From: Candidatus Omnitrophota bacterium
GTDB lineage: Bacteria; Omnitrophota; Gorgyraeia; Gygaellales; Profunditerraquicolaceae
DNA: 64,000 bases
Assembly: GCA_028716965.1 (NCBI GenBank)
Contig: JAQUOV010000003.1
Location: 69,302-133,301, forward strand
Reading direction: 5' to 3'
Shown piece by piece: positions 6,001-36,000 of the stretch. The translations under genes and the position numbers were made by a program. How positions within the stretch are numbered: position 1 is the first letter of the stretch; each line of letters begins with the position of its first letter. A model generated the notes under the pieces. It was not told where the DNA came from, did not search any database, and saw only the letters and a list, made by a program, of their open reading frames with translations.

Positions 6001-9000
6001 TCATTCAAGTTAAGACTGAAAAGAAAGTTATTCATAATGTAATTCACAACGTTTTCTTCTTTGCCGGCCTTAGAGAATAATTCAAACATTTTAACCGTTA
6101 TCGCCGTTTTCGCTCCCATACTCATAGTCTCATCAGACAAAAAATATCTTATTTCTGGAAGCTTAACCGAGTTCTTATATTTATGCAAAGCTACTTCATA
6201 CGGCTTACGGTATTCATCTAAAAACTGCAGCATAACACCATAATTGAAGAGATTCCCTGCTTCTTCCGAAGAAACAGGCAATCGGGCAGTTGCGGGAAAA
6301 AGCGGCGATCCTGCGATATGATATGCCTCTTCCCTACGGACCGAGCCTAAATAATACCTTTGACCTCCATAATAACCACCAATTTTTTCCTTACCGAATG
6401 GAACTTTTGGATAATTCTTGAGGCAATATTCTTTGCCTTTTGCATCTTGCTGAGAAAAATATTTATGGCAACAGACTAAATCTATAAGGGGCATTTTTGA
6501 ACTGATATACCGCGAGAATTGATTTGAATATTCTATTATTTCTTCCCCTATCTGGTATCTAACTTGCTTATTTATGCCATATCTACTATTTATTTCGATA
6601 TTATGGATAACCATGTTCCCCTTTATATCAATATACAGCCATGCGCACGCTATGGGATCTTTAATCTTCTCATCAATGATCTCTAAAGAGTTTATGCCTA
6701 TGTCAATAAGTCTATATAATATGGCATCGGGGAACTGATCGCTGTCCATCGCAAGGCAATAACCTACAAAATCACCTTGAAAAAGGTCATATCCAGGGTT
6801 CCTGCGTATAGGCCTGATTACAAATACCCCTCCGGGAAGGCTTTTGTCAATGCAGGAGAAACGTTTCTCCCTGAATCGTTTATCCTCTGATTTCCCCAGC
6901 CATCTTTCTATATCTAAACCATAATCTTCCATCCCTTCTCTTACCAGCCTATTATGTTCAGCTATTTTCCTACCCATAGCATCTTCCTGTTTTTCATTCC
7001 CGATAAAATCCCACACCCTATCTTCAAATAATGCTTTCAAAATGCCTTTAAATAGAGGTACTGAACCCGGGGCAATTCTTAATAAATTCTCTTTAGCCGT
7101 ATTCAACCTGGGTAAAAAAGGCATATACAGTTTATTGTGTATATCAGGATTTATGTTTCCCGCTTGCACACCTAATGAATCAGCAAAATAAGGCAAGAAC
7201 ACTCTTGCTAATTCATTATATAAATTATTGACCCCTCTAATAAAATTACGGTTATCCAATAATATGAGGTTATTTAATTTCTCGGTAAAAAGTTGAACAC
7301 AGCCTGCTTCTACAAAAGAAGAGGATATATCTAATACCTTAAATAATTCTGTCATTGGCACACGGTATTTTGAGCGGGAAGACCTGGTTTCTATTTCCTT
7401 TTTAATCAAAAACAGGGAATTTATGATCTCTTCGTTTTGCAAGCCTTTTTCTTTTGATTCTAAGAAACGGGCAACTACCCGGGAGTGGGAGCTTTGGCTA
7501 AACAAACTCAACATATGTTTAATGGCACCGGGCAATATTGATTCCAATTTACCGGCTAAAGGGAGATGCCTTTGCTTAAATATCATTTCATTGATTTTCC
7601 GTTCAGGATTTATTCTCCTGTTCTGCTTAATAAAAGCACCTAAAAGACTATCCAACAGCGTTTGGATGGGGGAACTGGATTCCTTTAAATCGCTTAATAG
7701 CGCGGAAACATCTTCCTGTGTAATTTTGTCTGTCAGCTTAAATACCACCTTTGAAAAATATGTTTTTCCCCTGGAATAAGCGAGATTATTTACGAGATAC
7801 TTATGAAAGCTGACGTCACCTTCCAGCGCATTTATAAAAGAGCCAAGAAATAGAACGGATGGACCTTTGGTTTCTAAAGATGCCAAGGCTTCATAAAGTG
7901 ACTGATTTTTAGGGAAGGATTCATTTTTAAGAGGCCACTTATTTGAAAACTTGTATTTCAATAACCTCCATAATTGCGTGGCGGCGAACAGATTATTGTA
8001 TTCTCTGGCAAATTTTGCCAATATGTTCCAGGCGCGCGACCTCCAGTAGGGAGTGAACCTTATAATATGGTAAAGGTACCGGGTTATTTCCTCAATTGCC
8101 GCCGGCTCAACAGCAACTTTGAGAAAAGCGCTTATCTCTTTTAACAAGCCTTCATATTTCTTATCCGTAATATCCCACTCGGAAGCCAATTCCCATCTTA
8201 GGCACAAGGTTTTTGCCTTGCCCAATTCGCTATCTTTAAAAGGAGCCGGAGGCGCCCGGGTAAAACGTGAAAGAAAACGCAAGTTCTTATCCCAAGGCGT
8301 AAATATAAGCGTGTACTTTTTACCGGAACCAATATTAACCTCATAAAAATCATCCTTGTCTACTACCATATCTACCGATTCCAACGCTTTCCTAAGAATA
8401 CCCGGAACACAGGCAGATTCCTTTTTTTGCTCCTTTGCCGCTACAAATAAAGTAACGATATTGTTCCCCTGTTCATTATTTACCTCTATCCTATAAGCGC
8501 TAAAGGCTTCATTAAGATATATAGCCCAATGCTGACGGGGTTTCATCATGCTGAATCTTTTGTCTTTGGGCCAACGGTTAACTAACCAGGTAAAAGGTGT
8601 CTCCTTTGCGGGGTTCCTGAAATCAGAGTATATAAGAGTTACCCTTATTGCCGCTATGTCATTAACCAGGGCTTTATCCTTAATAAAGTCCTGCAATCTT
8701 GACCTATCCAATAGCCCCTCAAACATCTTCTGCCATTGATTATCAACAAAAACAAAGTTAAAACTCCACTCCAGGGCCGAACTGGAGGAAATTACCGGCA
8801 AGGCAACAGTGAATTCCGTATATTCCCCTGGTAAACTCTCCACACTTACATTCCCGCCAAGTCCGTCAGCAATCTTTTGTAAACGGTAAAGCGGCATATC
8901 TCCATTATAGGGGTAATGCGAAAGACCAGGGTCTGATTCCTTTAAGGAGTAAAGCGGCAAGAACAGGTAATCGAAATCCTCTTCCTTGATCCCTGCGCCT

Positions 9001-12000
9001 CCTTCATCACGTATCCGTATAATAAACCACTTGTTTTCATGGACAGCAAAGGACACGGAAAAAGTATGGGCGCCGGCCTGTTGAGCGTTCTTGAGCATAT
9101 AAGAGATTATTTTCAATAAAGCAAGCTGGACCGCTACTTTTATTGGCTTATTAAAAACCCTGTCTTCTATGAAAACTTTTATTTTAAAAGATTTCTCTCT
9201 CGCCTTTAATTCATTCCGGATACTTGCTACGATTTCACGTGCATCCATAGGTTGCGGTTGCGCTTTACCGGATAACATATTATTTCTAATACTAATAAGT
9301 AAAAATAATAATTTTGTGGTGTTTTTCCTTATAGTATTAACTTCTTCGAATTCCGGAGCGATAAACTCAATTTCGGCTAATATCGCGTGGATCTTTTTAC
9401 ATATTCCGATAATGTTTTCCACAGCATTATTTAAATTTGCTTCTAATTTACCTAAAGGCCTTGCGTCATTTTGCTCTTCCCTTCCAACAATCCTTAGGGC
9501 ACTGATTATTAAATCCTGGATAGCCCGGGTTTTCTCGTTTGCGCTACCTTTAGTCTTCCTCGCCAGCCGATCAGTAGATTGCCCCATTGCATTAAGAGGG
9601 TTCTTTATAATATGGCTCATTCTTTCGGAAACGATGCAACGGCAATTCTTACCGAATAATTCTTCCGCTTCCCTTCTTACATCTTCGTCAGTATCGCGCC
9701 TTAGTCTTGAAATAAGAAAAGAAGCAACCACTATACTGATCCGGCGCAAATCCTGCACCAATAACATCCTGATCTGCCTACTGCCATTTTCCACAATGCC
9801 TTCCAATGCCTGCTTTGCTAATTCATCATTTATTTCAGCGTGAAACGCAAGGAATTGAAGGACCGAGAACCTTTCATTGTCGTCAGGAATGAAGCTAAGA
9901 TAACGTTGTTTATGCAAAGTAAATATCGTTTCTTTCTCCTTACCCTTTATCGCCTGGGGAGCAAGTATACTGATCTTCGGGTCATTTCCGCGCGCGTTAG
10001 TCCCATATGTCTTGCCATCTTTTGGATCGCCTTTTTCGTCAGCTATATAAAAATACATGGTAAAAGGACACTTCTCTTTCCCTGCGGTTGGCTTACGAGG
10101 ATAACAGCGGACTTCAATTCTAAAAGCATTACCGGATTTCTCAGCGCTGTCATTATTATTTTGATAAGGGCTTACTCTTGTCCAAACATGCTCCAAAATC
10201 TTTATTTCATGCTCTCCCGAACGCTCTGCCTGATATACATCTACAATATGCATATCGCTGTAGTCTCCGCGCGCTTTTCCATTCTCAAACCAGGCAATTA
10301 CTTTAATATATTTATTTAACAAGGCTTCGCACTCAGCCTTTGTAATTACTTTATCCAGCATGATCGTTCCATACAGATAAAACGGCTCCAGAAAATATAC
10401 GCGTTCTGGAGGCATCATCGAATGATCCCTGGTAAGACTCCACCTTAATGCATCCCCGGTTATTATGCCGGGCCAATTTTTCTGATCCTCCAGCAAAGGA
10501 GAAGCTCCTACTTTAGAATATTCGCTGGCGCCGGCCTGGGCAAACAGATGAACAATCATTTCCCGAGGGACAAGAGAGGAGAATCTCTGCTGCATCCTGC
10601 GCAATAATGTGTATGTGTCATTTACCCCCTTGTCACTAAGTATATCGTTGATACTAACCTCAAAATCAAATTCCAGCCTCAGGAATTCCTGCTCCAGTCC
10701 GGTCAATGGGTTCTCATTATTAAGCAACCTGTACGCCAACCAATCTCTCGGCCCGAATAATAAAGGATGGATGGAGCCTTTGAGGTAATGCGCAACTTTC
10801 ATCCCTTCCCTGACTTCAAGCAGTTCATGCATGCGGTGATGAAGCGTTCCCCGCAAAATAATTATTTGTGTAGAAGGCTGGTTGGCTGTTATTTTCTGGA
10901 TAAACCCGTTTAAACTATGATCCCTAAGAAGATAGTTCTTCGCCCATGCTTCCACGGAATCTTTCAACAGAGATAGGTAGCGTACGGGGTCTTGCTTGCG
11001 AACATCACCAGCCAGATACTCCAAAGACTCCCCCTTTATCCGCGATACCCAAGCGTTAAATGGCAAACAGTTATATTCGGAAACAATTTTTATTTCCGGG
11101 AAACGGTTTAAGAAATCGTCAAGCCCTTTGCGGTAAGCCAGGGAAACAGGATCAAGCAACATTCCGGGAACAACTAATCTGCGTTGCCTGGTAAAAGAAA
11201 GAGCGCGTTCCTTACCATCTTCAAATCTACGCCTTAATTCAGCCGGATGTTTGTAAATATGCCTTTTCACCAATTCTTCCGGCCTTATATACGTCCCGTG
11301 CTCCTCCAAAATGAATACGATAGGCAAACCTGAAGCCTCTGCGACAATTTTTTCCAGGATTATTCTGACCTCTTCAAAATGAGCAGCATACCCATGTGGA
11401 CCGTAGATATAGGCGATCTTGGCTACGCTCTCCTCACCAAAAATCACTTGCAATCTATCTACTAAAACAGCCAGTGCCTTGCCTTTCTTGGGGCCTAAAT
11501 CATATCTGGAAAGGATCTTTTCTAAAGCTTTTGCCTTTTTTGTCTTGGAAGAATTCTTCTCGGAAATAATCTCCCTAACTCTATTTAGAATAACGGTATC
11601 ATTATTTATATCATTAACAAGATTAGACAGCAAATCTTCCATTGCAAGCGGGCTGGAGGAATCATTGATACTGTAATTTCTTACTAAGTAATTAAAATTT
11701 ACGGGAATGTGGGTACTTAAATGGGGAATTTCTGATTTTTCAGGGAGGCGCCCTGCGTTATAAGCTTTTGTTAAAATACGGCAATCTTCATCCGTAAGGC
11801 CTATCAGAGAGCCTAAAGCGCGGATTAAAATATTCTCTAAATTCATCCCCTTCTGGAAGTAAACAACTATCCTGGATATGCTGAATTTTACTGCAAGATT
11901 AATTATTGTTTTACGGCTAACCTCAAGGAATGCATAAGCTTCAATTGCAGTAACGGCAATCTCCACATCTACGTGTCCGCCAAAGGTGAGATTTTCGCCG

Positions 12001-15000
12001 CTTACACAATACAAACCAATATTGCCGGGAGGCCCTCTCAAAGGATTATTCTTATAGCCTGCCCGTGCGAATAATCCATCAAAAAATCCTAAAACCTTTT
12101 CCCTGGAAAGGCGGAACTTTTCCAGATTCGTTACCGGCATCACTAAGCTTTTTCCTATCTGCCTGTGGACTTCTTCATGGGTCAAGCTTGAACTTGCGGT
12201 TGAAACTGGCGAACCACTGCTCCCATCGTTAGCGGCGGAGGCGCTGTGAGTGCCTAAGCGGGAAATTAATGCTTCCTGGTAATACTCCATTCTTATTTCA
12301 AAGCTACGTAACAGATAAGAAAGGTTGCTTCTTAATTTTTCAGCCCGCTCAAGAATGGTAAAGCTCAGCTTATTCCTTAGGCTGTCAAAAGATACCTTAA
12401 GAATTGGCTGAGCAAAAGACGAACCTTCTTCATAAGTTAAAACACTTGGTAGATCATGCTTGATCCTGCCGGCATATGGAGCTGCACTCCCATAAACATA
12501 TTCTCCCGATACAGTTATATCAAAACGGGGCTTCCATTTCTCCTGGCCTAAATCTTTGACCAATTCATAGACTCTTAAATAAGCTACTTTATCAATACTC
12601 AATAACTGCTCCGGCACATCAATCTCAGCAATGACTTTACCCCAGAGCGATTCTTGCAGCCTTACCGGCCAAGGTGTAGTCTCACCTTGCGTCCGCGCTA
12701 GCGCTCCGTTAGTTACCGGGCTTCCGGAGGCGGGGCTTCCTGCGAGCTTATTTAAAAATGAAGGGATGAAAGTTTCGACTACCCACTCCTCTAAATGGCC
12801 ATCGCACAACTGCCGTTTATTAAAATATCCGGCTGCCCCTGTACGAACCACGTATTGGATAATAGTATCCGAAGAACAAGTACTAATCATTACTACCGGT
12901 ATATTTTTAGTTCTATTATCTCTTTTAAGAACATCCAATAGGGCAATCCCATCCATTTCAGGCATGCTGATATCAGACGTAACAAGTAAGATGCTCGTGT
13001 TATCTTTTAATATTTCTAATGCCTCTATCCCATTTTTAGCTTCCATAAAGCGCACTGGAATCTTGTGAAAATTAAATATTTCTGACAATAAGTTTTTGAT
13101 TCCTTTCCGCAAGTCCGGTTCGTCATCGACCACTAAAATAGTTACTTCCGGGCTAATGGGGCTTCCGGCTGCGTGACCGGCATAAAGCCGAGCAATACCT
13201 CCAATCATATGCAATATTTCCGAAGCGACAGATTCATTCAAATCCCTATAACCTGTTCCGAAGGAGTGGAATGACAAACCGCGTTGTTCCAAATGCTTTT
13301 TAACAATGTCTATATTTTCGGAAATGATCTCAAAAGCTGTTTCCTTTGATATGGAGAGGCTTGCGTAAGCCAGGATCCTGTTTGTCACCACGGGCATAAC
13401 GCCCCTGAAATCCCAGCTGACCGTCGTATTAGGCAGCGTAGAAATTGTTGAGTCGATTGTGATCTTTTCCTTGCGCATAACAGCCCTGGTCTGTCCTAAG
13501 GGGCCGGTGTATAATATTAAAACCGCTTGCTCTGCGGGATCATCTGCTATGGAATAATCATTGCCTACGCCATTTATAACTTCAGGCTCGTCGTTTTCTC
13601 CGGAAATCGAAATTTTGACTCTGTAAATTTCGTCACCTATGTAGGCAACCCTGATCTGTTTCGGTAAAATGCCGAAACGTCTTTTTATTTGTTCAAGCCC
13701 TATTCTTACTCCGGTGGACTTCGGGGTAGGCGAGATATCTAATGTTGTCTTTCCTCCGGGCTGAGACGCGATGATCAACGGTTTTATATTGCTGAACTCA
13801 GGGTCAAGTTCTCTTATCTCCTGATAAACTCTTTTTATCTCCCCATACTGGTCGGGGCGGATAAATATTTCCTTATCTTGCCCGTTAGAATCTTTAACGC
13901 TGATCTGCCACCGACTGCCTGCCTTACAATTAACCAGGCTATCCAGTTGATGAAGCACGAAAATAGGGTCGCGTAAGATCAAATCCATAAGTATTCCCTG
14001 CTTTCTGCGCTTGATGGATTCGGGCGGCTCATCGCAGGTTCGTTTCATATCGAATCTACCCGAAAGTATACCAGCTATAGCGGCATATCCTAAGATTTCG
14101 TGAGTTTTTTCATCAAGTAAAGGTTCACGCGGCTCTATAACATGGCCGCTTACTTCATATCCTACTTCCGGCATACTCAAGCGGCAGGCCAATTCGATCA
14201 ATTTTGCCTCCGATATACTCATAGAGTTTTGGAATACCTTGACGTAGTTACCGGTTGTCCCGTCATAAATAAAAACCGCGTTCCCGGAAGCAGCGCCTAT
14301 TAATTCCCTTCTAAATATATCGCCTTCATCTTCCGAGAGGCGCCCTACGCCGGTGCGTGTTGATGCCCAGCTTAGCATACGTTCTACCTGTTGATAGGGC
14401 TCAACCATCTGCTTGTATGGGCCCTCAAAAGCCTGGCCAGTAATAACTTCTCTTAAGATCTTGGAACAATGAAAGATCCAGGCAATATAAGCCATCCATT
14501 GGTTTTTCGGCGTTCCAGCGGCTGTTAAAGTGCCGTCCATATCCTTCATAATTACCGGCTCTTTATTGAACACGATTGTCTGGCGCAAGTATCTCATCAG
14601 AGGAACGGCTGCGGATAATTCTCCCAGTATGCCCAGAAATTCTTCCTGTCCTGGATCCCGGTTAATTTCTGACAACAGCTGTTTATGAATCTCGAATTCA
14701 TTCTGGAAATTATCTTCCGCTAAACGTTCCGCTTTCGCGAGTTGAAATCTTAATACGGCTTCCAGGTGTTTCATTCTCTCTCCAGGCGTAAGGCCGGCAG
14801 AAATGATCTCATGAGGCATTAAGATGTCGATCACGCCGGCGCCTTGCCTGATAATACCTAAACGCTGGGCATACTCTCTTTCTAATCTATCGGCCGGCTT
14901 ATCATCCTGGAACGCTCCCGTCTTTCTGTTGGCGATAAATTCTTCATCCGTATCCGTAGGCGATAAAATACGCATTCTTACAGGGATAGATTTTATGCGG

Positions 15001-18000
15001 TAACCTATGCCTAAAGCATCTCCCGCGGAAATACCAAACGTATCGATATCCCTGCCGGTGACATTCCTGATCGCCGTCCGAAGAACATACTGAAACCATG
15101 TTTCCCCCGGCTGTTTGTCATCTGCCCACGCCGGGACCTTGTCCTCATTAAGCCAGGCGTCTAATTCAAGCATTAGATCATCGCGAAAGATCAGTTCAAG
15201 CGGCCCCCTCATTCCAAAACCCGCCCAGGATAAACCCGCTTTGCTCAAAATGCGCTCCAGCTCTTTATGCCTGGCGATCATCCGGAAAACAAGCGGCGTC
15301 TCTAAGGCCTGCCGCGTCCGTTCATCCAATAGCTCCCAAATAGCGCTTGCCAATAACTCCGGAACCGCGTTGATCACAGAATTATAGAGATCGGGATTTT
15401 GTCTTTGGGGAGTCAGGCTAACGCGCATCATCTGCCTGCCGGCGTCTACTTTTATACCGCGCTGCTCCAGGTTTCTTATATCTTCTTCGCTTGGCGTATT
15501 TTCACCGGTATAACCCCCGAACTCGCCGCGATAAGCCTGGGACTCTGTCCCGAAATCCGGCCTGGCGGGGAAAAGCAGCCTCTCTTCTATCCCGGCATTA
15601 CTATTAGCCAAAACCCTGTTCCACATAAGCTCCAAAGGATATCCTGACATTGCCTCTATAAATTCAACGGCAGATTCCCACCACGACAATCCGCGCGTCT
15701 CATCATCTTTAACGGCGTTGGTGAGAAGGTTTTTCACGGCCTTGATATTTCTCACCATAGCTCTTACTAAGCCACGGTTCTTAAGCAGGATGCCCAGGCT
15801 TGTCGCCCAACTGCACAGGCCTGACATTATAAGCTTTGCCTGTTCTATAACGCCGTTAACGCGGCTATGCAGAGGAACAGCAGGATAATAGATATCGATA
15901 TCGCGCATCCGGTAAGCCTTGCGTTCGCCCGCATTCTGCGGCCCGTGCGGCGTATGCGAATAAAACGATTGGCCGATAAGCTCCTGGCCGTCGCGCAGTT
16001 TAATGATCATTTCGTTTCCAAAAGGATGGTCCAGCACCGCCAGGCCTTTTGCGCCTACGAGATTGCTGAATTCAATAAGACCGGCATAAATTCCGTCCGG
16101 ATTCATGAATTCTTCGCCATGACCACGGGTATACAGCATGATTCCATCGGCAATCAGGTTCTTTATACCGTTCCAATCGCAGGATAATTTCGCGTTATCC
16201 GCTTTCTCGGCATAAATTAAGACTTTCTTAAAGAATTCTTCGAATGCCTCTTCCGTACCTTCCTGGACTGCATTCTTACGGGAATTCTTATAAAGAGAAT
16301 GCAATTCCTCGGTCAGCGGCCTGGCTCCTTTCCCGAAACGATGATTAAGCAATGACTTGATGATCTGCGCAGAGGGGGCCCCTTCTATGATTGCCGCCTC
16401 AATCATAAAACGCTGGTGATCTCCGGTTGCCCCCGACTGAATATGCAATGTCGAAGCGTCAAACCCCCGGGTTATCAACGTTGAGCCGCCGTTATCCGTG
16501 CCGCTGATAACAGCCAAAGGCCTGTCTGTCGTCATTCTGGCAATGACTCCTGCCATGGCAATAGAAGCGCCTCCTCCGGATTCAAGAATGATCTTCCTGG
16601 ACAGATCCAAATAGGCTTCTCCTTCCTCAAAAGCATCCAGCTGTTTTAAACGGTGGAGATTGCCTAAGACAATATGTACTTTTCCTGCCAACTCCACGAA
16701 GGCATTTATATCGCGGGAATTGCGTTTTAAGTTTTCCAGTTCCTTATCGAATGTGGCAGTCAAGACAATATTTCCTGATTTGGCTAATTCATTTCCGACG
16801 CTTTGGGCGATCTTCAGGAACATCTCAAAAGCTTCGCGCCGAACACCATCGGTGATGAGCGAAGCTTTGACCTCACTGTCAAAGATTTCTCTTTGGCCGC
16901 TTCCAATAATCTCCTCCAGCGTATCCAAAAGCACATTCGCTGCCAAAATGAACTCCGGATCTTCTGCCTTCTTTACGGCACGCAGCACGGCTATTCTGCC
17001 TGCCTCGTCCACCTCAGGGCTCACTATAGCATCTAATATTCCCAGAATTCGCGCAAAACGGAACTCTTTTTCAGTGAAACTTTGTTCGGCGACAAACTGC
17101 GCCGGATTGTCTTTTATTCTTTTGAAGGCGCGAATGCGATGAATATGTATAAGGCTCATAGCCGCCTGCAGGCTGATGCTGATGGCATCCTTATTTGCGG
17201 CTTCAAGATTAAGCGTAATATAAATGCTGTCTGGAGTGATCCTGCTCTCTGGCCTATCCTTATCGCATACCGCCGTCAATGCCTTTATTGTTTCCTCCGT
17301 ATCAAAATCCTTTAGGCGATAGGCTGCCTGCTGCCTGAGCCAATAATAGCCTTCACCTGTAGCCTGATAATTTAAGAGAACATCGATAAGCAGCCTGTTA
17401 TTTCCCATAGCGGCAATGACTTTTAGGAGCATAGCCTCCATAGCCGTCCATCTTCTTACGGCTTCATAACAAGAGTTAACCCGGAGGTCTAATTTCTCAG
17501 CATAAGCCGCGTTTACCTTACGCTCCCTCTCAACTTCATCAATCATTTTCTGAAGGTTAACAGTGTGCTGATGCGCCCGCAGGCCGGATACGGCAAGCCC
17601 GACCAATTCATTCAAAGATTGCGCCCCTCCCAACATCTGGAGGGCAGCAATAGCTTGCATACTGGCGAAGAAAACATCTTCATGCGTATTTTCTCTTTTC
17701 CGCAGTGATTCCTTATCATCTCTCTCAATATCAACTTCAATGCTCCCGAATCCACCAACAACACTAAAATAATGCCTGGCCTGATTTAATAACAAACCTT
17801 TTAATCTCTGCGTAACATTATCCGTCCCATATGCTTCATTTAACAAACGAGGGATCAATTCTTCTTTTATCCGCAACACTGCTTCATCGGCCCTATCCCC
17901 ATCAAATTCGGTTCCTAAGATCCGGCGCGCAGCCTCCCGGATAGTTACAAATACATGCTGCTCATTAGTCTCACCTGCCTGAAATTCAGATAATACCTCT

Positions 18001-24000: not shown

Positions 24001-27000
24001 TCTTGGGGCAGGTACTTGACAATATAGCCGTTTCCGGAAACAATACGTCCGGCAGCATCTCTTTTTAAGTGTTTCACGCGTTCCGGAATAACTCCATCTG
24101 GGGTGGCAATAGACGGAGCCTGCTGATTACCATAGCTTGTGGGGCCGGCCTCTTTATTATCTTCGGATAACATCCCCCCAAAATCCCTGCCTTGCTGCAG
24201 CCAGGGAGATGTATAGACGTTATGGTCTGAAATAAAAATAAGATGATATCGCATTTCAGGGTATTTTTCAAAGAGGTCGTCAATACGCTTCTTTTCGTTT
24301 ACAAAGAACGTGCTGAATGGCCTTCCGCCGATCAGAAGCACTGCGTTAGAATCAATGACCTCTTTTCTCTTATGATCGCTGAATAAAGAATCAATGATCA
24401 AATTAGGGCATTTGTATTCCACAAACCTGCGCACAAGACTGAAAAACGGCATAGCCATCAGATCTATCCCTTTTTCCTTCAATTCCTCCTGGGTAATGCC
24501 CAATGGCCCAAAGTGATTCTTTAAAAGCAAATCGATAAGCTTTTTCTTCTGCCTTTTTTTGGCAGCGAGGTACTTTTCAATAAATGCCAGCTTTTTCTCT
24601 GTGTCTTTGTCCAGAACCATGAATAAACCTTCGTAGTCTTTATCCGGGATCTCCATTTCTGCCATCGCCTGCGTGATCACGGCTTTTACATCCAGTCCAT
24701 TCCACCTTTCATCATCAGACCCTTCACTATTGCCAAAAAGCGGGTCTTCCCAAACTTTATCCATGTTAGAAGAATAAATTTCTTTACATACTCCGGTATG
24801 TTTTGTAGAACATCCGCTGACACAATCGCATACCGCGCCTGCAATATCCGCAGGATCAACAACTTTCCCATGGCTGGCAAACCCAAATTCCGTAGAAATG
24901 TTCAACGGATCATACATATAATCATGGTACAGGGGCATAGTATCCGTAACTATGCTATGATTATATTTGTGCCCGAATACCTTACGCATAAACGCATCGT
25001 ATTTAAATCTATCGTTCACGACTTGAGGCATCATAAGGATAGTGTTGCCTTCGCTCATGGAAAATACCGGCTTATCACCTATTAAGCCTCTGCGGCGCAA
25101 CCCAAGAATAAACCGCGAGTTTGCCTTACGATAAACATATGATTGCACCGCACGGAAATCATCAATATGTCCTTTTCCGGATTCCGCTTCCGGATATGCC
25201 TCCGGGAAAATCATAGGGCAGTAGAGCCAATATTCCCTTACCCCCGACTTCTTCTTATCACTGACGAATTGAATGGTTACGGTTTCTTTCTGTCTCAACT
25301 TTGCTTTTTCCCTTGCGAATTCTTCCCTGGCCATGCTGATTATATTCTCATCCTTTATGGCATTATTGTATGCCCAGGTAAGAATCTCTTTTGTAGTTGT
25401 CTCCGTAATCTTTTTATGCGCAAGATGCTTTAAGGCATCGGGCAAAGCTTCACGCCTGGTAATATTTCTACATATTTTAAAGTATACCCGGGAGGCGGTT
25501 ACTGAAGCATACTTCGCAATAAGTTCCGGCAGGAGATAAAAATCTAATCTTTGCATCACTATTTCCCGCAGTGCAGGCGGAAGCCATATTTGATATTCCT
25601 CTTCAAACTCCAGCGCCCTAGTAAGAAATAGTTTTACAATATCTTCGTGAATCTGTATCGGCTTTGTAGTCTGCTTGGCCCCTTGGCGCTTGAATATTAT
25701 TTCTTCCGGCAACGCGAATTCCCCACCCTTGATCTTACTTGAATAAAAAATGCCGAATAGGTGGATCTTATTATTGGCCTCAAGTTCACCCCACTCATCT
25801 ACGAATATGCGATAAATGCCCCGGACTAAATCGGGCTTGAAACTCCCCAGGCCCCCGGACATCAATATTTTTGCCAATCTGCCTGTTATTTTGAATGCTT
25901 CGAATTCGCTGTATCCCTCAACAGCCTGAAGATAAATACGAAACGCCTCAAGCAGTGTCCAGGTCGGCATATATTCCATCTGGAATATAAATAAATCACA
26001 GTTACGTAATGTTTTCAACGCTCTTTTCATTACCTCCCGTTTAAACTTGCGGGAAAAACCATAATCAACATTATATGTACCAAACTCCCAATGATAACGT
26101 TCCCTGCCTATCCGGTATTCAAAATCATCCAGTCTATCTTGTGCTCTAATAAGTAAACTTACGGCTTCCATCAGATATCCTGGTTTTTTAGCATCTAAAA
26201 TGTGTTTAATTACGGAGTTGGAGTTTTTCTTTTGGTGCAGCTCATTAAGCCACAATAACTTTTTCCCCAAGATGGTATCGTATTGGTCTTCAGGGAGTGT
26301 AAATATCCTTTCGCTAGATTTTTGAGAGTTATTCTGGGTGGCTGGGGAACTGGTTGTTATTTTTCTTGATTTTGCCTCCGGTCTTTCCACAGATTGGACT
26401 AACGTAGAATCTGCTGAAGGCCCATCTAATATTATCTTTAACCTTTCTATTCTTGCCGCGTCGCAAGGACGCACGTCTATTCCATGCAGCCTCTTTAAAG
26501 AATTGCTCAACGGATTTAATCCTGGAGAAAGATATCCTTTCAGGTAACTCTTATCCAAATCACTTCTCCATTTAAGAAGTTGGACCGCGGTTTCCTGGGC
26601 GTAACCTAAATCCCTTAATGCAAATACGCTAAAGGCGTCGGCATCAAATTCTAACTCATGTAGCTGTGTTTCTATTTCTTCAGCATCTGCCGGAGATAAA
26701 TTGCTTAAGCTGGCCACCATAGTCTCAAGGTAGGTTTTTCTGCTTAAATGGCCGCTAAGAATATGCTTTAATTCGTGGGCAAAAAGCATGACGAGTCCGG
26801 CTTTTCCAAAGCGGGCATAGACTGTCTGCAAAAATCCTTCGAGGTAAGAAATATGCTCCTCCAGCGTATATTGATTCAAAACAACAGCGACTAAATATCC
26901 TGCTCTGGGCGCTAATTCAAGCCTCACAGATTCGAGCAATTTTAAATCGGCTGGATGAACTTTGCCCCACCTTTTCTGATTATCTAATATATAACTTCTT

Positions 27001-30000
27001 ACCTCTCCAAAAGCCTCCTTAAATATCGCTGTATCTATAGCGCTAGCTGCCTTAAGTTCTCCCCTTGCTATTACAAGTGCGCCAAAATTTGTAAGCTTTA
27101 AGTACGGACCGATCGGCGATTGCGCCGAATAATTTGATTTCCTCGTTGCATTGGAAACCGGGCTACCTGAAATGGGAACGAGTGGCTCTACGGCTATCTT
27201 TTTCTCCTTAACGGCTGTGGGAAAAGGCAAACACAATATATCCTTAGGAAGGTGTATATAAACGATCCCGTTTTCGATACCAATACTTTTGATATATTTT
27301 TGGCTTCTTATAGCATGAGCATTGTTGGTAACATTTTCAAAAATCACCTGGGCATTGTTTTCCTTCAGGGAGTTTAACAAACCGCCTCCTACTTCCTGTG
27401 GCAATACACCATGGATGCCTATAAAGGATAATATAAGCAATGCTTCGGTTTGCTGTTCTTCTTTACCCATTTTCATCGCCTGCATTAATGGAGGAATTAT
27501 CTTAGGAATGTTTTGTGAGTTCTTAATAATCAACTCCGTTGTAATATGGGATAAACCGTGAAGTCCGGTGATATTATCACGAAGTATCAAACTTACACAA
27601 CCTGTAAATTCCAAGCTCATCAGTTTATTTTCCGCCCTGGTAAGCCGAAACTCATTTTCACCTACAAGTGAAAAGTTATGCCTTGCTTTTCTAGATTCAG
27701 AAATATATGCACCGGGAAATAGAAAATCCTCTATATCATAGATAAGATATCCATTGTTAAGGCTTACTGGGCTTCCAGAGACAACTTCGCCCAAAACGCT
27801 AATACGATACATAAGATGAGTCCGTAATGTTCTGATCCAGTATTCTTCCAAAGGTTGTACTCCATAATTTTCCGAAAGTATTACATAATGGGACTTTAAA
27901 ACGGATAAAGGCATGTCAAACAAGAATCCCATATCATCGCGGTATCTCAATACGCCATACTGAAATTCCAAAGGCAGTTTATCTCTAAATAAAGCGTAAA
28001 CGAGGTTGATTTTATTTTCTGCTCTCTCGGATAGGTAGAAAAGAAGGGGGAAACCGGTGATAGGGATGAAAGGTTGAATAATAATCTTAAAGATAGTTGG
28101 TGAATGTTCCCAGAAAGACAGCCAACTTAACAATGCCTTCTTGCAATTATCTATTCTTTTCCCGAGAACTTCTTTTAATTGCGGCGATAAATGGGAGGTT
28201 TTTCCTAAAACCGATATGCCCAATTCGGGGCTTAGTCTATTTTCCTTCCCTGAAAACGTTATGTTAATTTCTGTAACCGGCAACTGTTTTTCCTGCCTTG
28301 TTGTTTTGACAACCGCAGGATATACCGCCCTAAACTCTATAGAAAGTGGGCTTGAGGACTCCTGAGGTACAGGTATTTTGGGACAATATAATTCCGCAAG
28401 CTGACGCGCTATTTGCGCTGCTGCCTTACGAATATGCCCTTCTTCCCTATTATCATCCTCTTCCCGGGCATAGAGCTCATCGATATCTATCACAATGACA
28501 CCCCGATTCCGAAGCTCCCCTAAATCAACCGGTTCCCAGCCGCTGATCCTGTCCGTTTCTTTTATTGCTATTTCCGGAACACCCTGTATTTTTGCCTGGG
28601 TATGAGGCGAAATTTTTAGATACACTTCTATAACCATTAATCCTTTATTCTGCAGCCTCTCTAATTCCTCGCTTGTTAGCGGATAGGTCGCTATAGCCGG
28701 CCCTCCATTAAACTCCTCGCTTTCATAAGCTTCTTTTGCCGCTTCGGCATCCAGGTCATTAATGATCTGTTGGATGCCTTGATACTTGGTAAGCCTGTAA
28801 AGAGCTATCTGCATAAAGGTATCTTTTTTCACGGATACTTTTATATGGTCTCTCCAGGTGATTGCCTGCCCTTCCTCAACAGGAGCCGTTGTGCTTACCC
28901 ATTTTTCGTCTATCTTTAGCTCCATGGGGTCTGCCTTCCGGTTGATACGCTCTTTCAGGAAATTCTTCAAATGCTTAATGGCTTCTTTTGAAGATATTAA
29001 TGGCTCGGCGACTAAACGATTGAGGTCATAACCGCTATTACGCAAGTCTTCAACAAAGAAATAAGCCCATGCCCTTAAGATGAATGGAGAATTAAAATAG
29101 TGGAGAATAAGTTCACCATTACAAATCTCATTCCCCTTTTCATCTTCTAAGAAGAGGCCGAAATGACGCGCCAACGGGACTTTTCCGCTTGCGCTGCGTC
29201 CGACAATACGCAATAAAATTGGCTGTCGGGAGCGCGAGGTGTCCCGCTGCATAGCTTTCTCAAAATCTTTTCTGGTAGCGTTAAAGGGCATCTCATATTT
29301 GATGGTTGCTCCCAATCCCGGGCCGTCGCTATAAACCTGCATATAGCCGCCTATGCTATTGAGCCGTTTTATCATCGTATAAATACCTATCCCTTGCCCG
29401 TCTATGCCTGTGCCTTCGTGGAAACGCGCTACCTTTCTTCCAAAAACCTGCAATGCATCGGCAGTCATACCTCGTCCATTATCAACAAGCTTAACTTCCG
29501 TCATGCCTTTATGCCAGTCAAGGGAAACATGGATGTTTACCTTAAGAGGGAGTTCCGGATTACTGTATTTAATAGAATTGATCCCCGCATTTATTAAGAT
29601 CTCGCTGTTTAAAACATGGTAAGTGGAGATCTCTTTATCCGGTACGCTCTTGTCAAATATCACTTCAAAGCAACCTTCGGCTAACCCCTTTGGAAGCCAT
29701 GTCCTGACAACATCTGATTGCGCATAACCAAGTAAAGTTTGTGTGATATTTGTCATTACCTGGCGTAAATTCTTTCGCTCGGCAGAAATATCCACAGGTT
29801 CAAACAAAACAAGAAGCCCTCTTGTAATCCTGCCGTAGCCGTATTTTACATTGCCATACAATTTTGCAAGCTCTTCGTCATTGCTTAATTCCGTAGATCT
29901 AATAAAATTATCGAGCTTTGGATTGAAACGCTTCGCTGCCTCCTGAAACTCATCAGCTAAGTTTTTAAATTCGACGTACGTAGCAACTACATTATTAATC

Positions 30001-33000
30001 AACGCTATGTCTTCGTATCCAGTGCCATTTTTCATATTAAAATCGTTCAGAGATATATCTCTGTCCAACTCATTTTTTGCGGATTCTAACTGCATAACCA
30101 ACGTTGCTATCGATTTAATCCCCGGTTCAGGGCTATCAATACCTATATCGAAGATTCCCGGGAGATTTTGGCCTTTCAATAATTTCAACCTCTTGCTTAC
30201 TCTCCTTAAGTATGCCCCATAAACCATAAGGCCGTTCTTGATCTCATGCAGCGCATCCGGCCCTTTTATCGATAGGTTATTGGCAATACTAAAAGCCTCC
30301 GGGTCTATATTATTACTCTGCCGCTTCCCTTCGTCCTTAACAGGGCTTGCTGCTTCCTTCATAAATTCTGCTTCGGTAGAAAGTGCCTTAATGGGTGAAG
30401 ACGACTTCTTTGCTAAAACATTTAGCCACCTGCCAATAATCTCAGCTACTTCATTATCCGGGAGTCTGAATTTAGATAGCTCGCCGCTTATATGTTCTTC
30501 GGTCACTTTTCTAAAAGAATCGTCATCTAGAGTATACATATTGCCGCTAAGCTCAAGGAAACCGATCCCCGTCTCGCAGAATCCATCCATAGCTAACCTA
30601 AAAGGCGGAACCATCATAATATACGCAATATCATCGTTACCTATGAGCATAGGATGGGGGATATTCATATCCTGCAGTATTTGTATTAATGAATATATCA
30701 CCTTTGTCTGGGATAAAATATATTCTCCTTTAAAGCCTATCACGGGGACAGGATAATCAGTAGCTTCGAATACATCTAATCCGCCTAATCGGGTTATAAT
30801 TCTCTTAGGCGCATTTTCGACAGCTAGTGTATGGTGCCTGACACTATAAAGGATTTGGAAGTGCAGGTGGTTTACAGAGGCACCGAACTGCCAGGGGTTA
30901 AAGCCTATTTTAAAACCGCTGCTTCTGGCTAATTTGGACATAAACAACGCTGCTTCTATAGCTTTCTGCGATAAAAACTGCGGCTCCCCTTTCTCAGGCC
31001 AGGGAAGTAATAAGGAATGATATTGCTGCATAGGGTTTTGATTAATATCTACGACTAATAATCCCATATCCAAATCAAGATCAACGATCCTTCTTTCAAG
31101 GCATTCCTCATACCATTTGTTGAAATTTCCCTTTTCAGGGTCAAATGGTTCGTAAATATTTATCGGTACAGGCACAGAACTTAAGCGCTTGGCTGCTCCG
31201 TGTTCCGCATCATATTGCCTTCTGCCCTCCGGGAAAGTTTGTATAGTATAATTTCCTACCTGCCTTGTTTTGATTTTAGTGTTTGAATAAGAAAATATGC
31301 CTCCTTTTGCCATTTTCCCATCCCAAAGCATTCTAAAGAGATCAATAAAACTTGCGCCACCCGATAAAACTAAATTACCAAGCCCCATACGTTCGCCATC
31401 CAGCCTGCGTTTGTTATCGAATAGGAAAACCCCTTCCTCAAGCGCTGAAGAAGTTGTTCTGCCTTCAATACTGCTGCGATAAAGTTCCAGATATTTGGAA
31501 GCTGATACCTCCCAGCTAAAATTACAATTTATGGCATTTTGAATTAAAGCCCTCCTTAATCTTTCGTTTCTATACGTCCTGACAGCTCTCTGAATAGCTA
31601 AAAATGACTCTGAAGGGTCTGCTTGCTCAAATACAAACCCATTACCCTGGAATGTCTCTTCATTAAACTGTGTTATTGTATCTGCCAAGCCACCGGTCCT
31701 GCGTACAACCGGAAAGCCTCCATACCTAAGGGCATAATCCTGAGTCAATCCACAGGGTTCTTTACGGGAAGGCATTACAAATAAATCTTCTCCGGCTAAC
31801 AGTAATTTATCCAATGTTTTTATTAACCCATCATTGTGATCTTTTAACTCCATTTTGCTGCCTGTACCAAAATTAATACTTACCTTTCCTCTATAACTTA
31901 TATCTTGGCTGATCGCATTAAATGCCTCTGCTATAGCGCCGTGGCCGCTGCCGATAAGCACAAATTGAACTCCTAAATCAATAATCTCCTTAAAACGCTC
32001 CAAAACCAAATCTAACCCTTTATCCGGGACTAATCTGCTGATATTGCCGATAATTGGTAGACCAGGCTCTTGCATAAGACCAAGCTCCCGCTGAAGCATA
32101 GCCTTGTAACGCGATTTGGCTGCCAAAACATTATCTAACGTGTAAGGAGCCGCTTTCTCCAGTATGCTCCATAATTCATAATCTACGCCGTTAAGCACCC
32201 CGTGTAGGTTATCCCTTCTTTTTCTTAATATCCCATCAAGCCCTTCACCATTTTCAGCGGTCTGGATTTGTTGGGCATAAGTGGGGCTTACTGTCATTAT
32301 TTCGTCACTGTAAGTAATGCCTGCCTTCATAAGGTTAATCTTGTCGTAAAATTCTAACCCATCTATTGTAAATACTTCCCATCCTAATCCGGCAATACCC
32401 AGCAGAAACTTATTAAATATACCCTGATAACTTAGGTTATGGATGGAATAAAAAATAGAAGCCCCCTTAAAAGAAGTATCGGCCTTATATTCCGGATGAG
32501 TTTTAACTAAAGGAGCCACCATAGCTGCCTGCCAATCATGCGCGTGAATTACATCAGGGCTTAAGTTAAATTCCCTGGCTATTTCCAGCGCGCCCTTTGA
32601 AAGAAATACCGCCTGTTCAAACCTCAAGCGTTCCAATAAACATTCCAGCTCATTTGAAAATATATCTCTGCCTAATCGCGCGTTTATAATCGGCCTTACC
32701 AAGAAATAATCCCCATCTTCACCCCCTAAATATAATTTCTTTGAATATACAGGGTGCTCTAAGAAAAAGAAATTTACGCCTCGAAACTCTGTCATCCAAA
32801 CCGGAGCAGTTTCTATCCTGCTTGCTATTGCAACCATGACTTTCTTGCCTGTGTCTTTTATACCAAATTTTTGCTTGTCTATTGAATCGTAAAGAATAGT
32901 TGTAACATAAACCTTCTGCCCTAATTTTGCCAGGGCGATAACCAAGCCCTCAAAGGCATCAGCCAGTCCGCCCTCTTTTGAGAATGGGTCTGCTTCGGGG

Positions 33001-36000
33001 CTGATATGGAGTATTGTCATAGGAGAAGAGCCCCCCACTATTGCAACATCAGCTCCGTATGAAAGTATGCCAAGCCCGGCCAGTTTATCCTTAACCCTGC
33101 CTTCACCGGTAAAAACCCCGCCTTTGTATATTTTTAGTTCAAGTTCGTTATAACCACGCCGCTGTGTCCAACTCAAAAGGAAATGTACAAAATCTTCCTG
33201 ATCCGCCATAAGCCTTTCGTCAATATCGCTAAAATTGGCGGTGAACTGATGTGTATGGCCAAGAGCAGGATGCAAGCCTTTGAATAAAGGCGCGAAATGC
33301 TGGTTATTTACTTCACCATAGATACCGAGCTCTTCTAATGCATAAGGCTCTAACTCTGACCAATGGAAGCCTTTTGATATAATCATAAGGCTCCTGTCAC
33401 CCATTTTTAAAAATTCATAACCTGTCTCAACCCCGCCTATAAATAAGAACCTAAAATCACCGCTGGGTATAGGGGCATATACGGGCGTGCCATTGTGGCG
33501 GATATCCTTGCTTTCCAAATCCCGCAAATGCCTGCACCTTTTATAGAGCGCTTCAAACACTAATTCTTGCACGAGCTTGATGTTTTCTTCCGGAAGGCCT
33601 GCAAGGCTTTTTTCAATTAAGTAGCTTGGTTCATTACCCCTGGTATCCTCTTCTTCCATCCACCTCTCTATTAACCGGTCAAAAACTCCGGGTAATCCTA
33701 TCATTTGTTTTATAATAACGCCTCTTGTTTCTGCATCTTCATCTTTGGTGGACTGTATCAACTTCTCGATAAGCTCATCTTCGGGTGACAATTCTTTTAC
33801 GGGCAACATAGAAACATCATTATCCTTAAAGAATACCTTGGCCTTCTCTGGTCCGGGATATGGCCCCTGACCGACCTCAAGCATCTTATTTCGATCACTT
33901 AAGAATTCGATATTATGACCAGCCATGCACAGGATCTTATCACCCGTCTCCAATATAACTTCTGCTACCTGCTCTTTATTTTTAGAATATACAAAGAATC
34001 TAGCTTTCCCCCTCTGTATGATAATTACTTCTAATGGCTGGTTATCAATAGGTGTATGAATGTGCGGCCTTCCTATATCGCCTTTTGGCGGCGCCTTAGT
34101 GCCTACTGCAAGCGGGAATGAATTAGTACAAATCACGGTGAATTTTTCAGGAGCAATATGCGCTTTTAATATCAAGGCAACAGGTTCATTGTTTTCGTCA
34201 TAGACAACTTCAGAGACGCGCTCTCCGTTTATTTCATGCATTGTTAAAGGTTCTTCCGGATTCCTGCTTATAGTCAAAACAGGGGTCTGCCTGACGATCG
34301 TTACCGTAGAATCCTCAAGCATAGTAGCCTTGTATTCAATCAGCGTCGTAGCCGTATCCTGTCTCTCTAATACTATAACCTTGCCTCCAATCTCTATCTG
34401 CACCCTGCCCCTCTCAACATAGAAAACCTCCTGATGTAAAGCCACTCCCCTTGTGTAAATAGCTTCCCCTTTCTTATAATCGAATACTTCCAGCTGAATG
34501 GGTAGTTGTCCTGAAGTTTTACCTCTTTCATTCTTCCCCATAAGGACTGCGCAAGAGTCGCCTTGATTGTCTTTTATTATTACAGAGGATGAAGCTTCAT
34601 TAATATTGGCATATACTTTTATATATAGCCGGGTTCCAAATAGAGTTTCCGATGTGCCCTTATTTAGCGTTAACTGGTTATTATCGCTTTCCTTTGTAAA
34701 TATCCATTGGAATCTTCTTCCGTTAGTATCAATTATAAGTTCAGCCTTATTAAATCCGGTAAGCAAATTGTATAAGTTATAGAATCCCATACCATTACCT
34801 TTTACTCTGTTAGGGCCAACTAAATCCCCGGGCTTTTCAAAGATCCCCGGGATTCCATCCCCATTATCTATTGCTAGTAATTCGAATACTGCAGCCTCTT
34901 CTTCTCTTTTTACCCTGGAGAGCATAATCATATTTCTATTTTGGGGTATGTGCTGGGCATTTAGAGCTAATTCTCCGGCAACCGCGCCAGCCAAGCGCCT
35001 TATATATGAATACCTGCCCAAAAATACACCAAGCTGCCTATCAACCATATCTTCTGCCGCTTCAGAAAATTCGCTCGCCAGAACTAATCCTTCATCAACA
35101 GGCTTGTTGCGAACAACCTTTCCTTTTTCAAATGTAGAAATGATATTGTATCCTGCCTCTCGTAATCCCGCTTTCAGTTCTTCCATCCTTACTGTTTCCA
35201 TAACTTGTTCTATTGAACCAAAGGAGTCAGTTAGGGCCATTTTGAAACCTTTGAATGCGCTGCTTGATCCCATCTGCGTTAACCAACCCAGCAAATCATT
35301 GGTAGAAGGCTCTTCACCCAACCTCAAGCGTAACTCGTCTAATCTGGAATCTTTTATTATTCTTCTATTGGTAGAACAAAGCAGTTTTATTTCAAGAAAC
35401 GGAATATTTAATTTTATGGCCTTCCTTCTGGCCTCAAGATGAGCTTCAAGGGTTTTTATAAAATCAGGATTGTTAAGCTGCGGACTGGGTTTTAAATAGC
35501 CTATTACAGAATAAAACTCATCATCTTCGCGGCCATATATGTGTTTAATGTTGGCATTATCCTCTAATTCACCTCTAATCTTAGCGAGAAGAGTTCTATC
35601 TTCCGCCCTTCCTTTTATTAAGATTAGCCCGTTTGGAGTCACTCTAATTACCTGGTCTTTTCTGCCTTCTCTTAATGCCCCATAAAAAACCTTAATCTCG
35701 AAAGGCCTCTGCTGCTTAATCCATTTCAATATATAGCTTAAATCAATATTTGATTTTCTTATTGAGGATAAGAGGTTATTAATATTCAAAGCGTCTTTTC
35801 CGTGATTATTTTCTGTCAAACATACTATTTCTGCAAGCGTAGCATGAACGTTATACAAATCATATAATTCCAAAGAAGCGCCCACTCCAAATTTATCAAA
35901 TATTTCTTTTAACCCCTGCTGTTCTTTTTTTATCTTTTCCTGTGTATTTACATCAAACGGGCCACCGATAATTAAACTAAGGTCCAGTATATTTTCATTC

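Follow-up and report, generated by a model that had tools for sequence, protein, structure and literature searches.

An intact receiver and a non-canonical histidine-kinase-like module within a giant multi-enzyme reading frame of Candidatus Omnitrophota

Giant proteins of the Omnitrophota have been described in two surveys. West-Roberts et al. (bioRxiv 2023, 10.1101/2023.11.21.568195) listed HATPase_c and PPDK_N within the top twenty domains of such proteins, with GT5/GT1 as the second most common class. Nielsen & Lui (bioRxiv 2026, 10.64898/2026.06.07.730766) reported 916 Omnitrophota proteins of >=10 kAA, with PF02518 in 136, PF00072 in 105 and PF08323 in 153 of them; their class 1 was the 'multi-enzyme metabolic cluster', and the receiver fell in the same co-occurrence module as starch synthase. 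In both studies the signalling domains appear only as Pfam counts, and phosphorelay, residue conservation and kinase architecture were not discussed. The presence of two-component-type domains in an enzyme megaprotein is therefore already recorded at the Pfam-count level. Here, a 64,000-base stretch of a Candidatus Omnitrophota contig (JAQUOV010000003.1, positions 69,302 to 133,301; hereafter the window, meaning the whole stretch analysed) was examined, in which a CheY-like receiver (REC), a histidine-kinase-like module and a further ATPase domain are embedded in a single giant open reading frame (ORF).

The window resembles the multi-enzyme giants of this phylum in having one ORF of more than 10,000 codons with many enzyme families, none of them dominant, and internal duplications. 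The families PF08323, PF00534, PF00072, PF02518, PPDK_N and HEAT are common to both, and with at least 21,332 residues and about ten families the window has the size and content of the giant class. Like the HisKA cores of HK853, WalK/YycG, CpxA and ZraS, its kinase-like module has an H-box of the form S-H-x-x-K/R-x-P-L, followed by helix alpha-2 and by a CA domain in which the N, G1 and F boxes are present. Unlike these cores, it has a hairpin of about 59 residues between alpha-1 and alpha-2, a spacing of 175 residues between the His and the N-box and a G2 box without its glycines, and HEAT repeats stand where a sensor or HAMP/PAS domain is usual. As in hybrid histidine kinases, the His, the ATPase domain and the receiver Asp are found in one polypeptide, whereas their order is reversed and the gap amounts to 1,068 residues. 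The predicted succession of a helical bundle and a GHKL domain in a single chain, in a multi-enzyme setting, is similar to that of PDK1-4 and BCKDK, from which the module differs in its conserved H-box His, the lack of a sequence-family match and its low TM-scores. Finally, the monomeric HWE/HisKA2 kinase EL346 autophosphorylates without DHp homodimerisation, an intramolecular element covering the dimerisation face (PMC10359499). In EL346 this element is the LOV domain; in the window module the inserted hairpin may play the equivalent part. The DHp of EL346 is of another family (HisKA_2/HWE).

Stop-codon counting revealed no TAA, TAG or TGA in frame 2 of the minus strand across the 64,000 bases, while the remaining five frames contained 124-853 of each stop codon apiece. 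The single ORF occupies the whole window, which therefore represents an inner part of a giant minus-strand gene of at least 21,332 codons (63998 down to 3), open at both ends. A plus-strand or multi-gene reading was ruled out, minus frame 2 being the sole open frame and stop-free throughout, and the window holds no second gene. The ORF listing, from which run-off ORFs were left out, contained seven ORFs of at least 150 aa. The original prediction had placed the kinase core and the receiver in the same ORF, which this count bears out. Window bases 63996-3(i-1) to 63998-3(i-1) encode residue i, the protein running N-to-C from high to low coordinates, and every feature described here lies on the minus strand (Table 1).

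The receiver scored 63.9 bits with Pfam Response_reg (E 1.8e-17), well above the cutoff of 30.2, and it was also recognised by NCBIfam CheY (52 bits, partial) and by a local profile built from 225 receiver domains (112 bits). Alignment to CheY structures revealed all five signature residues, CheY D12/D13, D57, T87 and K109 corresponding to D16958/D16959, D17009, S17039 and K17061. The codon of the acceptor D17009 lies at window 12972-12974. Judged from this alignment, the receiver is canonical and its active-site pocket is intact, in agreement with the canonical CheY-like receiver predicted at 12780-13150. Searching the whole protein with the local receiver profile did not reveal a second receiver anywhere in the window.

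The kinase-like module carries the H-box SHIIKNPLNAM on the first helix of a DHp-like region (window 9585-9617, with the codon of His18129 at 9612-9614). This helix is followed by an inserted helical hairpin and then by helix alpha-2. Comparison with 90 hybrid-kinase cores using hhalign gave a probability of 98.7% (E 1.7e-16) with the H-box included; MSHIIKNPLNAM was paired with MSHELRTPLNSI, and an insertion of about 59 residues, DHp helix alpha-2 and the CA domain followed. A DHp-only profile produced a single match in the whole protein, at the H-box site, while 20 block-shuffled controls reached a maximum of -0.7 bits, and an H-box regular expression likewise matched once in the whole protein. 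A MAFFT alignment (A1) that combined the window module, three relatives and twelve canonical kinases showed no variation at H18129 or at the Asp and Gly of the G1 box, and hardly any at the N-box Asn. The distance from H18129 to the N-box N18304 was 175 residues, compared to about 110 in HisKA kinases. A spurious H-box match had been considered; it was overturned by the gap-tolerant hhalign comparison, the MAFFT alignment with relatives, the specificity test and the structural model.

The AlphaFold2 (AF2) model of the module was a confident one (pLDDT 82, pTM 0.73). In it, four short HEAT-like helices precede a His-bearing helix of 44 residues, which is followed by three further long helices and by a CA domain with its alpha/beta fold complete. 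The helices of the DHp-like region span positions 66-109, 112-137, 143-174 and 179-203 in model numbering, and by this model four helices replace the two-helix DHp of canonical kinases. An origin of the inserted hairpin by internal duplication of the first hairpin found no support, the two scoring lower against each other than shuffled sequences did on average (z = -1.1). Foldseek analysis of the model returned HK853, ZraS, WalK, CpxA and KinB at E~1e-8.

The ATPase domain of the module (CA1) was matched by Pfam HATPase_c over residues 18291-18402 (E 3e-8, 34.4 bits against a cutoff of 26.4). The N-box N18304, the G1 D18331 (DEGGAGI) and the F box were retained, which supports that part of the N/G1/G2 set originally proposed for the kinase core. 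The G2 box was degenerate: GGTGLGL of canonical kinases is replaced by YNGDMPL, that is, GxGxGL by NGDMPL, and the lid/G2 region was the only disordered stretch of the module model. Both the His and the ATPase domain are genuine, as is their fusion, but the kinase core is non-canonical.

A word-seeded search with the 1,521-aa stretch from REC to the kinase recovered generic hybrid kinases only, each with 5-10% coverage, and the 521-aa kinase region alone returned nothing at E<=1e-3. True relatives were obtained only by an exhaustive HMMER search of 1,200 residues, from linker to kinase, against 1.84 billion representatives, which produced 390 matches at E<=1e-3 and five at E<=1e-10. Relatives of the kinase module included P0096 (1,768 aa), P0097 (3,377 aa) and P0111/P0244. 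Taking these together with the relatives of a separate linker domain (domain X, below), all named ones are proteins of Candidatus Omnitrophota metagenome-assembled genomes, bar one labelled Bacteroidales, which points to an Omnitrophota origin of the window. Family comparison was conducted on seven modules from five proteins. The His occupied the same column in six of the seven and the long helical spacer was present in all seven, and the N-box Asn, the G1 Asp/Gly and the F box were conserved across the family. A profile built from the six non-window modules spanned the module of the window from one end to the other (113.6 bits, E 5e-37, profile positions 8-361 of 365) and aligned its His. The HEAT-like segment preceding the His helix had weak NblB/HEAT similarity; the relatives share a D..VR..A repeat, and HEAT_2 matches were found in P0096 and P0244. 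In P0096, the nearest relative, a REC-like domain with its acceptor Asp lies about 130 residues upstream of the HEAT-His-CA module, and the REC-then-kinase order therefore recurs in one relative. The kinase module appears to be a new, conserved variant of the Omnitrophota lineage, in which HEAT repeats lead into a His helix with an additional hairpin behind it, and the CA domain is mostly without G2; sometimes a receiver precedes the module.

Residues ~735-1540 of P0096 (MCF7877417.1) comprise a receiver-like domain, then a tandem pair of long-DHp kinase-like modules, and after these a cytidylate-kinase-like domain. G2 is missing from the first of the pair and canonical in the second, whose H-box FHIVKNAL is very like that of the window. 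This protein could serve as a compact model for the long-DHp module family.

The second ATPase domain (CA2) was matched by Pfam HATPase_c over residues 11466-11572 (E 1e-9, 39 bits) with an intact motif set (N11470/N11474, G1 D11506 in VDNGRGM, G2 GQGIGI), confirming a HATPase_c-like domain expected at 29250-29650. The profile of hybrid-kinase cores (HK-core), hhalign (96.7%) and the Omnitrophota module profile (37 bits) all recognised CA2 over the CA part only, and its PDB sequence matches were ZraS/KinB/KdpD/CheA. None of the three profiles (HK-core, hhalign alignment, Omnitrophota module) identified a DHp or His helix upstream of CA2, and no further kinase cores were found elsewhere in the window with the HK-core and Omnitrophota module profiles.

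A third GHKL-like site carries GELALNAQH (N9680), then after 31 aa DNGDGI (D9711) and after another 17 aa GNGMGF (9734). Such a G1...G2 motif pair occurs twice in the 21,332 residues, compared to 0.06 expected from shuffles. The site gave no Pfam match, no PDB sequence match and no homolog at E<=10. Comparison by hhalign with the 90-kinase alignment yielded 0.9%, and two kinase profiles with filters off, the HK-core and the six-module profile, gave nothing there. A single-sequence AF2 model was unreliable (pLDDT 37.7), and the Foldseek list obtained from this model consisted mostly of GyrB/ParE ATPase domains at sub-threshold scores (E>=0.006, TM~0.25). A third GHKL site is thus possible but unconfirmed; of the three GHKL domains originally proposed, two are demonstrable, and the one at 34600-34900 is left with its motifs. 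A pair of diverged internal repeats (residues 9056-9200 and 9314-9463, 44% identity) sits just upstream of this site.

The receiver lies 1,068 residues N-terminal of H18129, and no REC is present in the remaining ~2,900 residues. CA2 is separated from REC by 5,376 residues and from the kinase module by about 6,600. Among 90 hybrid kinases retrieved, 89 carry the receiver C-terminal to the CA domain, the gap being 35 residues at the median and never more than 113. Eight of the retrieved kinases have a receiver N-terminal to the core as well, at a distance of 141-968 residues. With regard to the enzyme domains, REC comes about 6,100 residues after the nearest GT5/GT1 pair (no. 2) and the kinase module about 7,300 residues after it, and CA2, about 620 residues after the GT1 domain of that pair, is the only signalling part fairly close to it. 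The sequence flanking REC, CA2 and the kinase module did not match any Pfam family at E<=1. The signalling parts had been supposed to be coupled directly to the glucan-synthesis domains, which these distances and flanks without a known family do not support. The sole link to sugar metabolism is the published co-occurrence of the receiver with starch synthase, a whole-protein association and not a mechanism.

A conserved His beside an ATPase domain, together with an intact Asp pocket in the same chain, makes intramolecular His-to-Asp transfer chemically plausible. The reading we favour, at slightly less than even odds, is that these parts form a switch in cis, in which the kinase module phosphorylates H18129, the phosphoryl group is transferred to D17009 and the receiver acts on its neighbours. 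CA1, or the motif-complete CA2 in trans, would use ATP to phosphorylate H18129; the phosphoryl group would then pass to D17009 of the same polypeptide or of a neighbouring copy; and the phosphorylated receiver would shift its conformation, altering the activity or packing of the adjacent unannotated modules. As modelled, the extra hairpin may turn the dimeric four-helix DHp bundle into a four-helix unit of one chain, in which case in-register homodimerisation of a protein of more than 21,000 residues would not be needed. The intramolecular phosphorelay of the original prediction thus keeps its ingredients, a conserved His by an ATPase domain and an intact REC in one polypeptide, but both the core and the layout proved to be non-canonical.

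Several observations weigh against such a switch. At the H-box, Pfam HisKA scored 16 bits (E 0.013), short of its cutoff of 26.9, and both phmmer against the PDB and the profile of 90 hybrid-kinase cores placed the canonical H-box helix on a His-less helix, EANLNNAVEN, which lies about 60 residues downstream of SHIIKNPLNAM and has canonical spacing to the N-box. The input alignment of the AF2 model contained 16 sequences with the canonical kinases aligned on the H-box, which may bias the model, and a monomer model cannot tell whether the four helices form one bundle. The G2 glycines that contact the ATP phosphates are missing in CA1, which makes ATP use by CA1 doubtful, and they are absent in five of the seven modules compared (that of the window and four of the six relatives'), the other two having a canonical G2. 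The order and spacing of the parts, as read from the sequence, are not those of a hybrid histidine kinase: REC precedes the His, opposite to 89 of the 90 references, and across the gap of 1,068 residues the pairing of H18129 with D17009 is a guess. Pfam searches of the flanks did not reveal a sensor, HPt or output domain around any signalling part. The histidine-kinase core first proposed was hence not recovered in canonical form; the H-box SHIIKNPLNAM is present and specific and its His is conserved, but it comes with a sub-threshold HisKA score, a His-to-N-box spacing of 175 residues, a four-helix DHp and a degenerate G2.

The altered G2 box would be explained if the module were a pseudokinase or a histidine phosphotransferase comparable to Spo0B and ChpT. 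Its DHp-like part would then carry the His, its CA-like domain would no longer use ATP, and phosphate would be relayed or removed rather than generated, while CA2 or a separate kinase encoded elsewhere performs the ATP step. The lost glycines, the lid as the only disordered part of the model, the same G2 loss with the His kept in four of the six relatives' modules and the intact CA2 without a His helix in the same protein are consistent with this. However, a nucleotide site without function would not be expected to keep the N-box Asn, the G1 Asp/Gly and the F box conserved throughout the family, CA2 is some 6,600 residues distant, and two family members with a canonical G2 argue that the family as a whole is not ATP-dead; such a role appears improbable to us. 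Somewhat more doubtful still is a GHKL protein kinase in the style of PDK and BCKDK, whose chemistry is that of a Ser kinase. It would phosphorylate Ser/Thr on the enzyme modules, as PDK does in regulating the pyruvate dehydrogenase mega-complex, the His would be structural or regulatory, and REC would be served by another donor. Foldseek placed BCKDK and PDK1/2/4 at E ~2e-8, the same as the histidine kinases, over 310-370 columns against 235-270; four long helices stand ahead of the CA domain in the model, dimerisation would be unnecessary and the module sits in a multi-enzyme scaffold. On the other hand, S-H-x-x-K-N-P-L is a HisKA signature with the His present in six of the seven family modules, and no PDK/BCKDK N-terminal family was among the Pfam matches. 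PDK and BCKDK retain a glycine-rich G2 box, which the module does not have. The TM-scores were ~0.3 with a root-mean-square deviation of ~16 A, and the longer alignment may reflect generic helices.

The remaining alternative is that the parts are functionally unconnected, the GHKL domains acting as ATP-driven clamps or chaperone-like elements (as in GyrB, MutL and Hsp90) that assist folding or organisation of the giant protein, and REC being fed by acetyl phosphate or an external kinase, within a mosaic gene. The long distances from REC to the His and from CA2 to REC (1,068 and 5,376 residues), the absence of a His partner for CA2, the weak Foldseek matches of the third site to GyrB-type rather than kinase-type domains, the mosaic protein with its internal duplications and the published clustering, which splits HATPase_c and REC between co-occurrence modules, all speak for it. 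Against this, the conserved His helix and CA1 are joined in register, P0096 repeats the REC-then-kinase order, and in both sequence and fold CA1 and CA2 match histidine kinases best, not GyrB, MutL or Hsp90. We regard a lack of any functional connection as rather unlikely.

How the enzyme modules of Omnitrophota giant proteins are coordinated is a question for which the window module and REC offer a concrete hypothesis of internal regulation. If the cis His-to-Asp switch is true, a second natural route to a non-dimeric histidine kinase would exist beside EL346. Should the parts prove unconnected, or the kinase inactive, the window would be an ordinary case of an already catalogued domain mix. 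A broader generalisation, speculative and on present evidence unlikely, is that Omnitrophota giant proteins carry a dedicated lineage of 'single-chain' histidine kinases whose inserted hairpin completes the four-helix DHp bundle without dimerisation and which, with embedded receivers, form intramolecular phosphorelays that turn blocks of metabolic enzymes on or off. Post-translational regulatory circuitry would in that case be hard-wired into a megaprotein of more than 20,000 residues.

Table 1. Coordinates of the giant ORF and of the domains identified within it.
Feature	Window position	Residues	Strand	Basis
Giant ORF, internal fragment	1..64000		-	Stop-codon count; about ten Pfam families
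Starch/glycogen-synthase-like GT5 + GT1 pair no. 1	56088..57596	2135-2637	-	PF08323 E 4e-56; PF00534 E 4e-13
Candidate third GHKL-like segment	34629..34991	~9670-9790	-	Motifs only
Starch/glycogen-synthase-like GT5 + GT1 pair no. 2	31530..33014	10329-10823	-	PF08323 E 3e-58; PF00534 E 6e-10
Orphan CA/HATPase_c domain 2 (CA2)	29268..29669	11444-11577	-	Pfam; HK-core profile; hhalign
CheY-like receiver (REC)	12816..13142	16953-17061	-	Pfam PF00072
Domain X	10545..11591	~17470-17818	-	Exhaustive phmmer; alignment A2
Four short HEAT-like helices before the kinase module	9699..9878	~18041-18100	-	AF2 model helices 2-60
Four-helix DHp-like region	9273..9686	18105-18242	-	AF2 model; hhalign; alignment A1
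CA/HATPase_c domain 1 (CA1)	8790..9254	18249-18403	-	Pfam PF02518; HK-core profile; A1; AF2 model
Pyruvate-phosphate-dikinase-like N-terminal ATP-grasp region	294..1454	~20849-21235	-	Pfam PPDK_N E 5e-15; NCBIfam TIGR01828 150 bits, partial

The linker from REC to the kinase module contains a conserved domain of about 350 residues (domain X), which is shared with the long Omnitrophota proteins P0093/94/95/100/105/110 (best E 9e-26; P0094 is 5,736 aa and P0095 6,905 aa long). Its invariant motifs PH, E, LRD and LRG..H look catalytic and may resemble TraB/Tiki-type motifs. No Pfam or PDB match to domain X was obtained, profile search included. P0094 (MFA4997924.1), a partial protein sharing domain X, is labelled Bacteroidales and 'glycogen/starch/alpha-glucan phosphorylase'; either it comes from a mis-binned Omnitrophota contig or such proteins exist outside the phylum.

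Analysis of the ORF with Pfam and NCBIfam revealed about ten distinct enzyme families, each present once or twice and none dominant. The two GT5 + GT1 pairs are 51% identical to each other, and a search for related loci using the GT5 module returned ordinary glgA genes only, with <=39% identity and from many phyla, a result uninformative on taxonomy. The other families comprised an ARMT1-like phosphatase, two CofD-like domains (window 15672-16595 and 43848-44300), a metallo-beta-lactamase and a TreT-like glycosyltransferase. One of the CofD-like domains, about 850 residues upstream of the receiver, matched the NCBIfam 'GAK system CofD-like protein' (E 1e-8). The pyruvate-phosphate-dikinase-like region forms the C-terminal edge of the fragment, near the window end. 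If a phospho-His swivel domain followed it beyond the window, a second, unrelated His-phosphotransfer device would be present, possibly of the glucan-water-dikinase type.

A Kyte-Doolittle scan revealed about ten strongly hydrophobic 19-residue segments on the N-terminal side of the fragment (window ~58500-63350, residues ~218-1830). An isolated hydrophobic pair, a possible hairpin, was found at residues 15069-15123, between CA2 and the receiver. The signalling parts would presumably be cytoplasmic, the topology being read from a crude hydropathy scan of a gene fragment.

A near-perfect direct repeat of 2,049 bp was present at window 50271-52319 and 53151-55199 (residues 3961-4576 and 3001-3616) with a period of 2,880 bp. 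Over the 1,848 bp compared, the copies differed at a single position, and the proteins were 100% identical over 616 residues, while outside the repeat the ~960-residue unit was about 69% identical at the protein level. The repeat could be a very recent duplication, a gene conversion or an assembly artefact. GC skew was near zero or positive at 50-56 kb only and negative elsewhere in the window. A further pair of diverged internal repeats was found at residues 1474-1650 and 1604-1761, with 37% identity.

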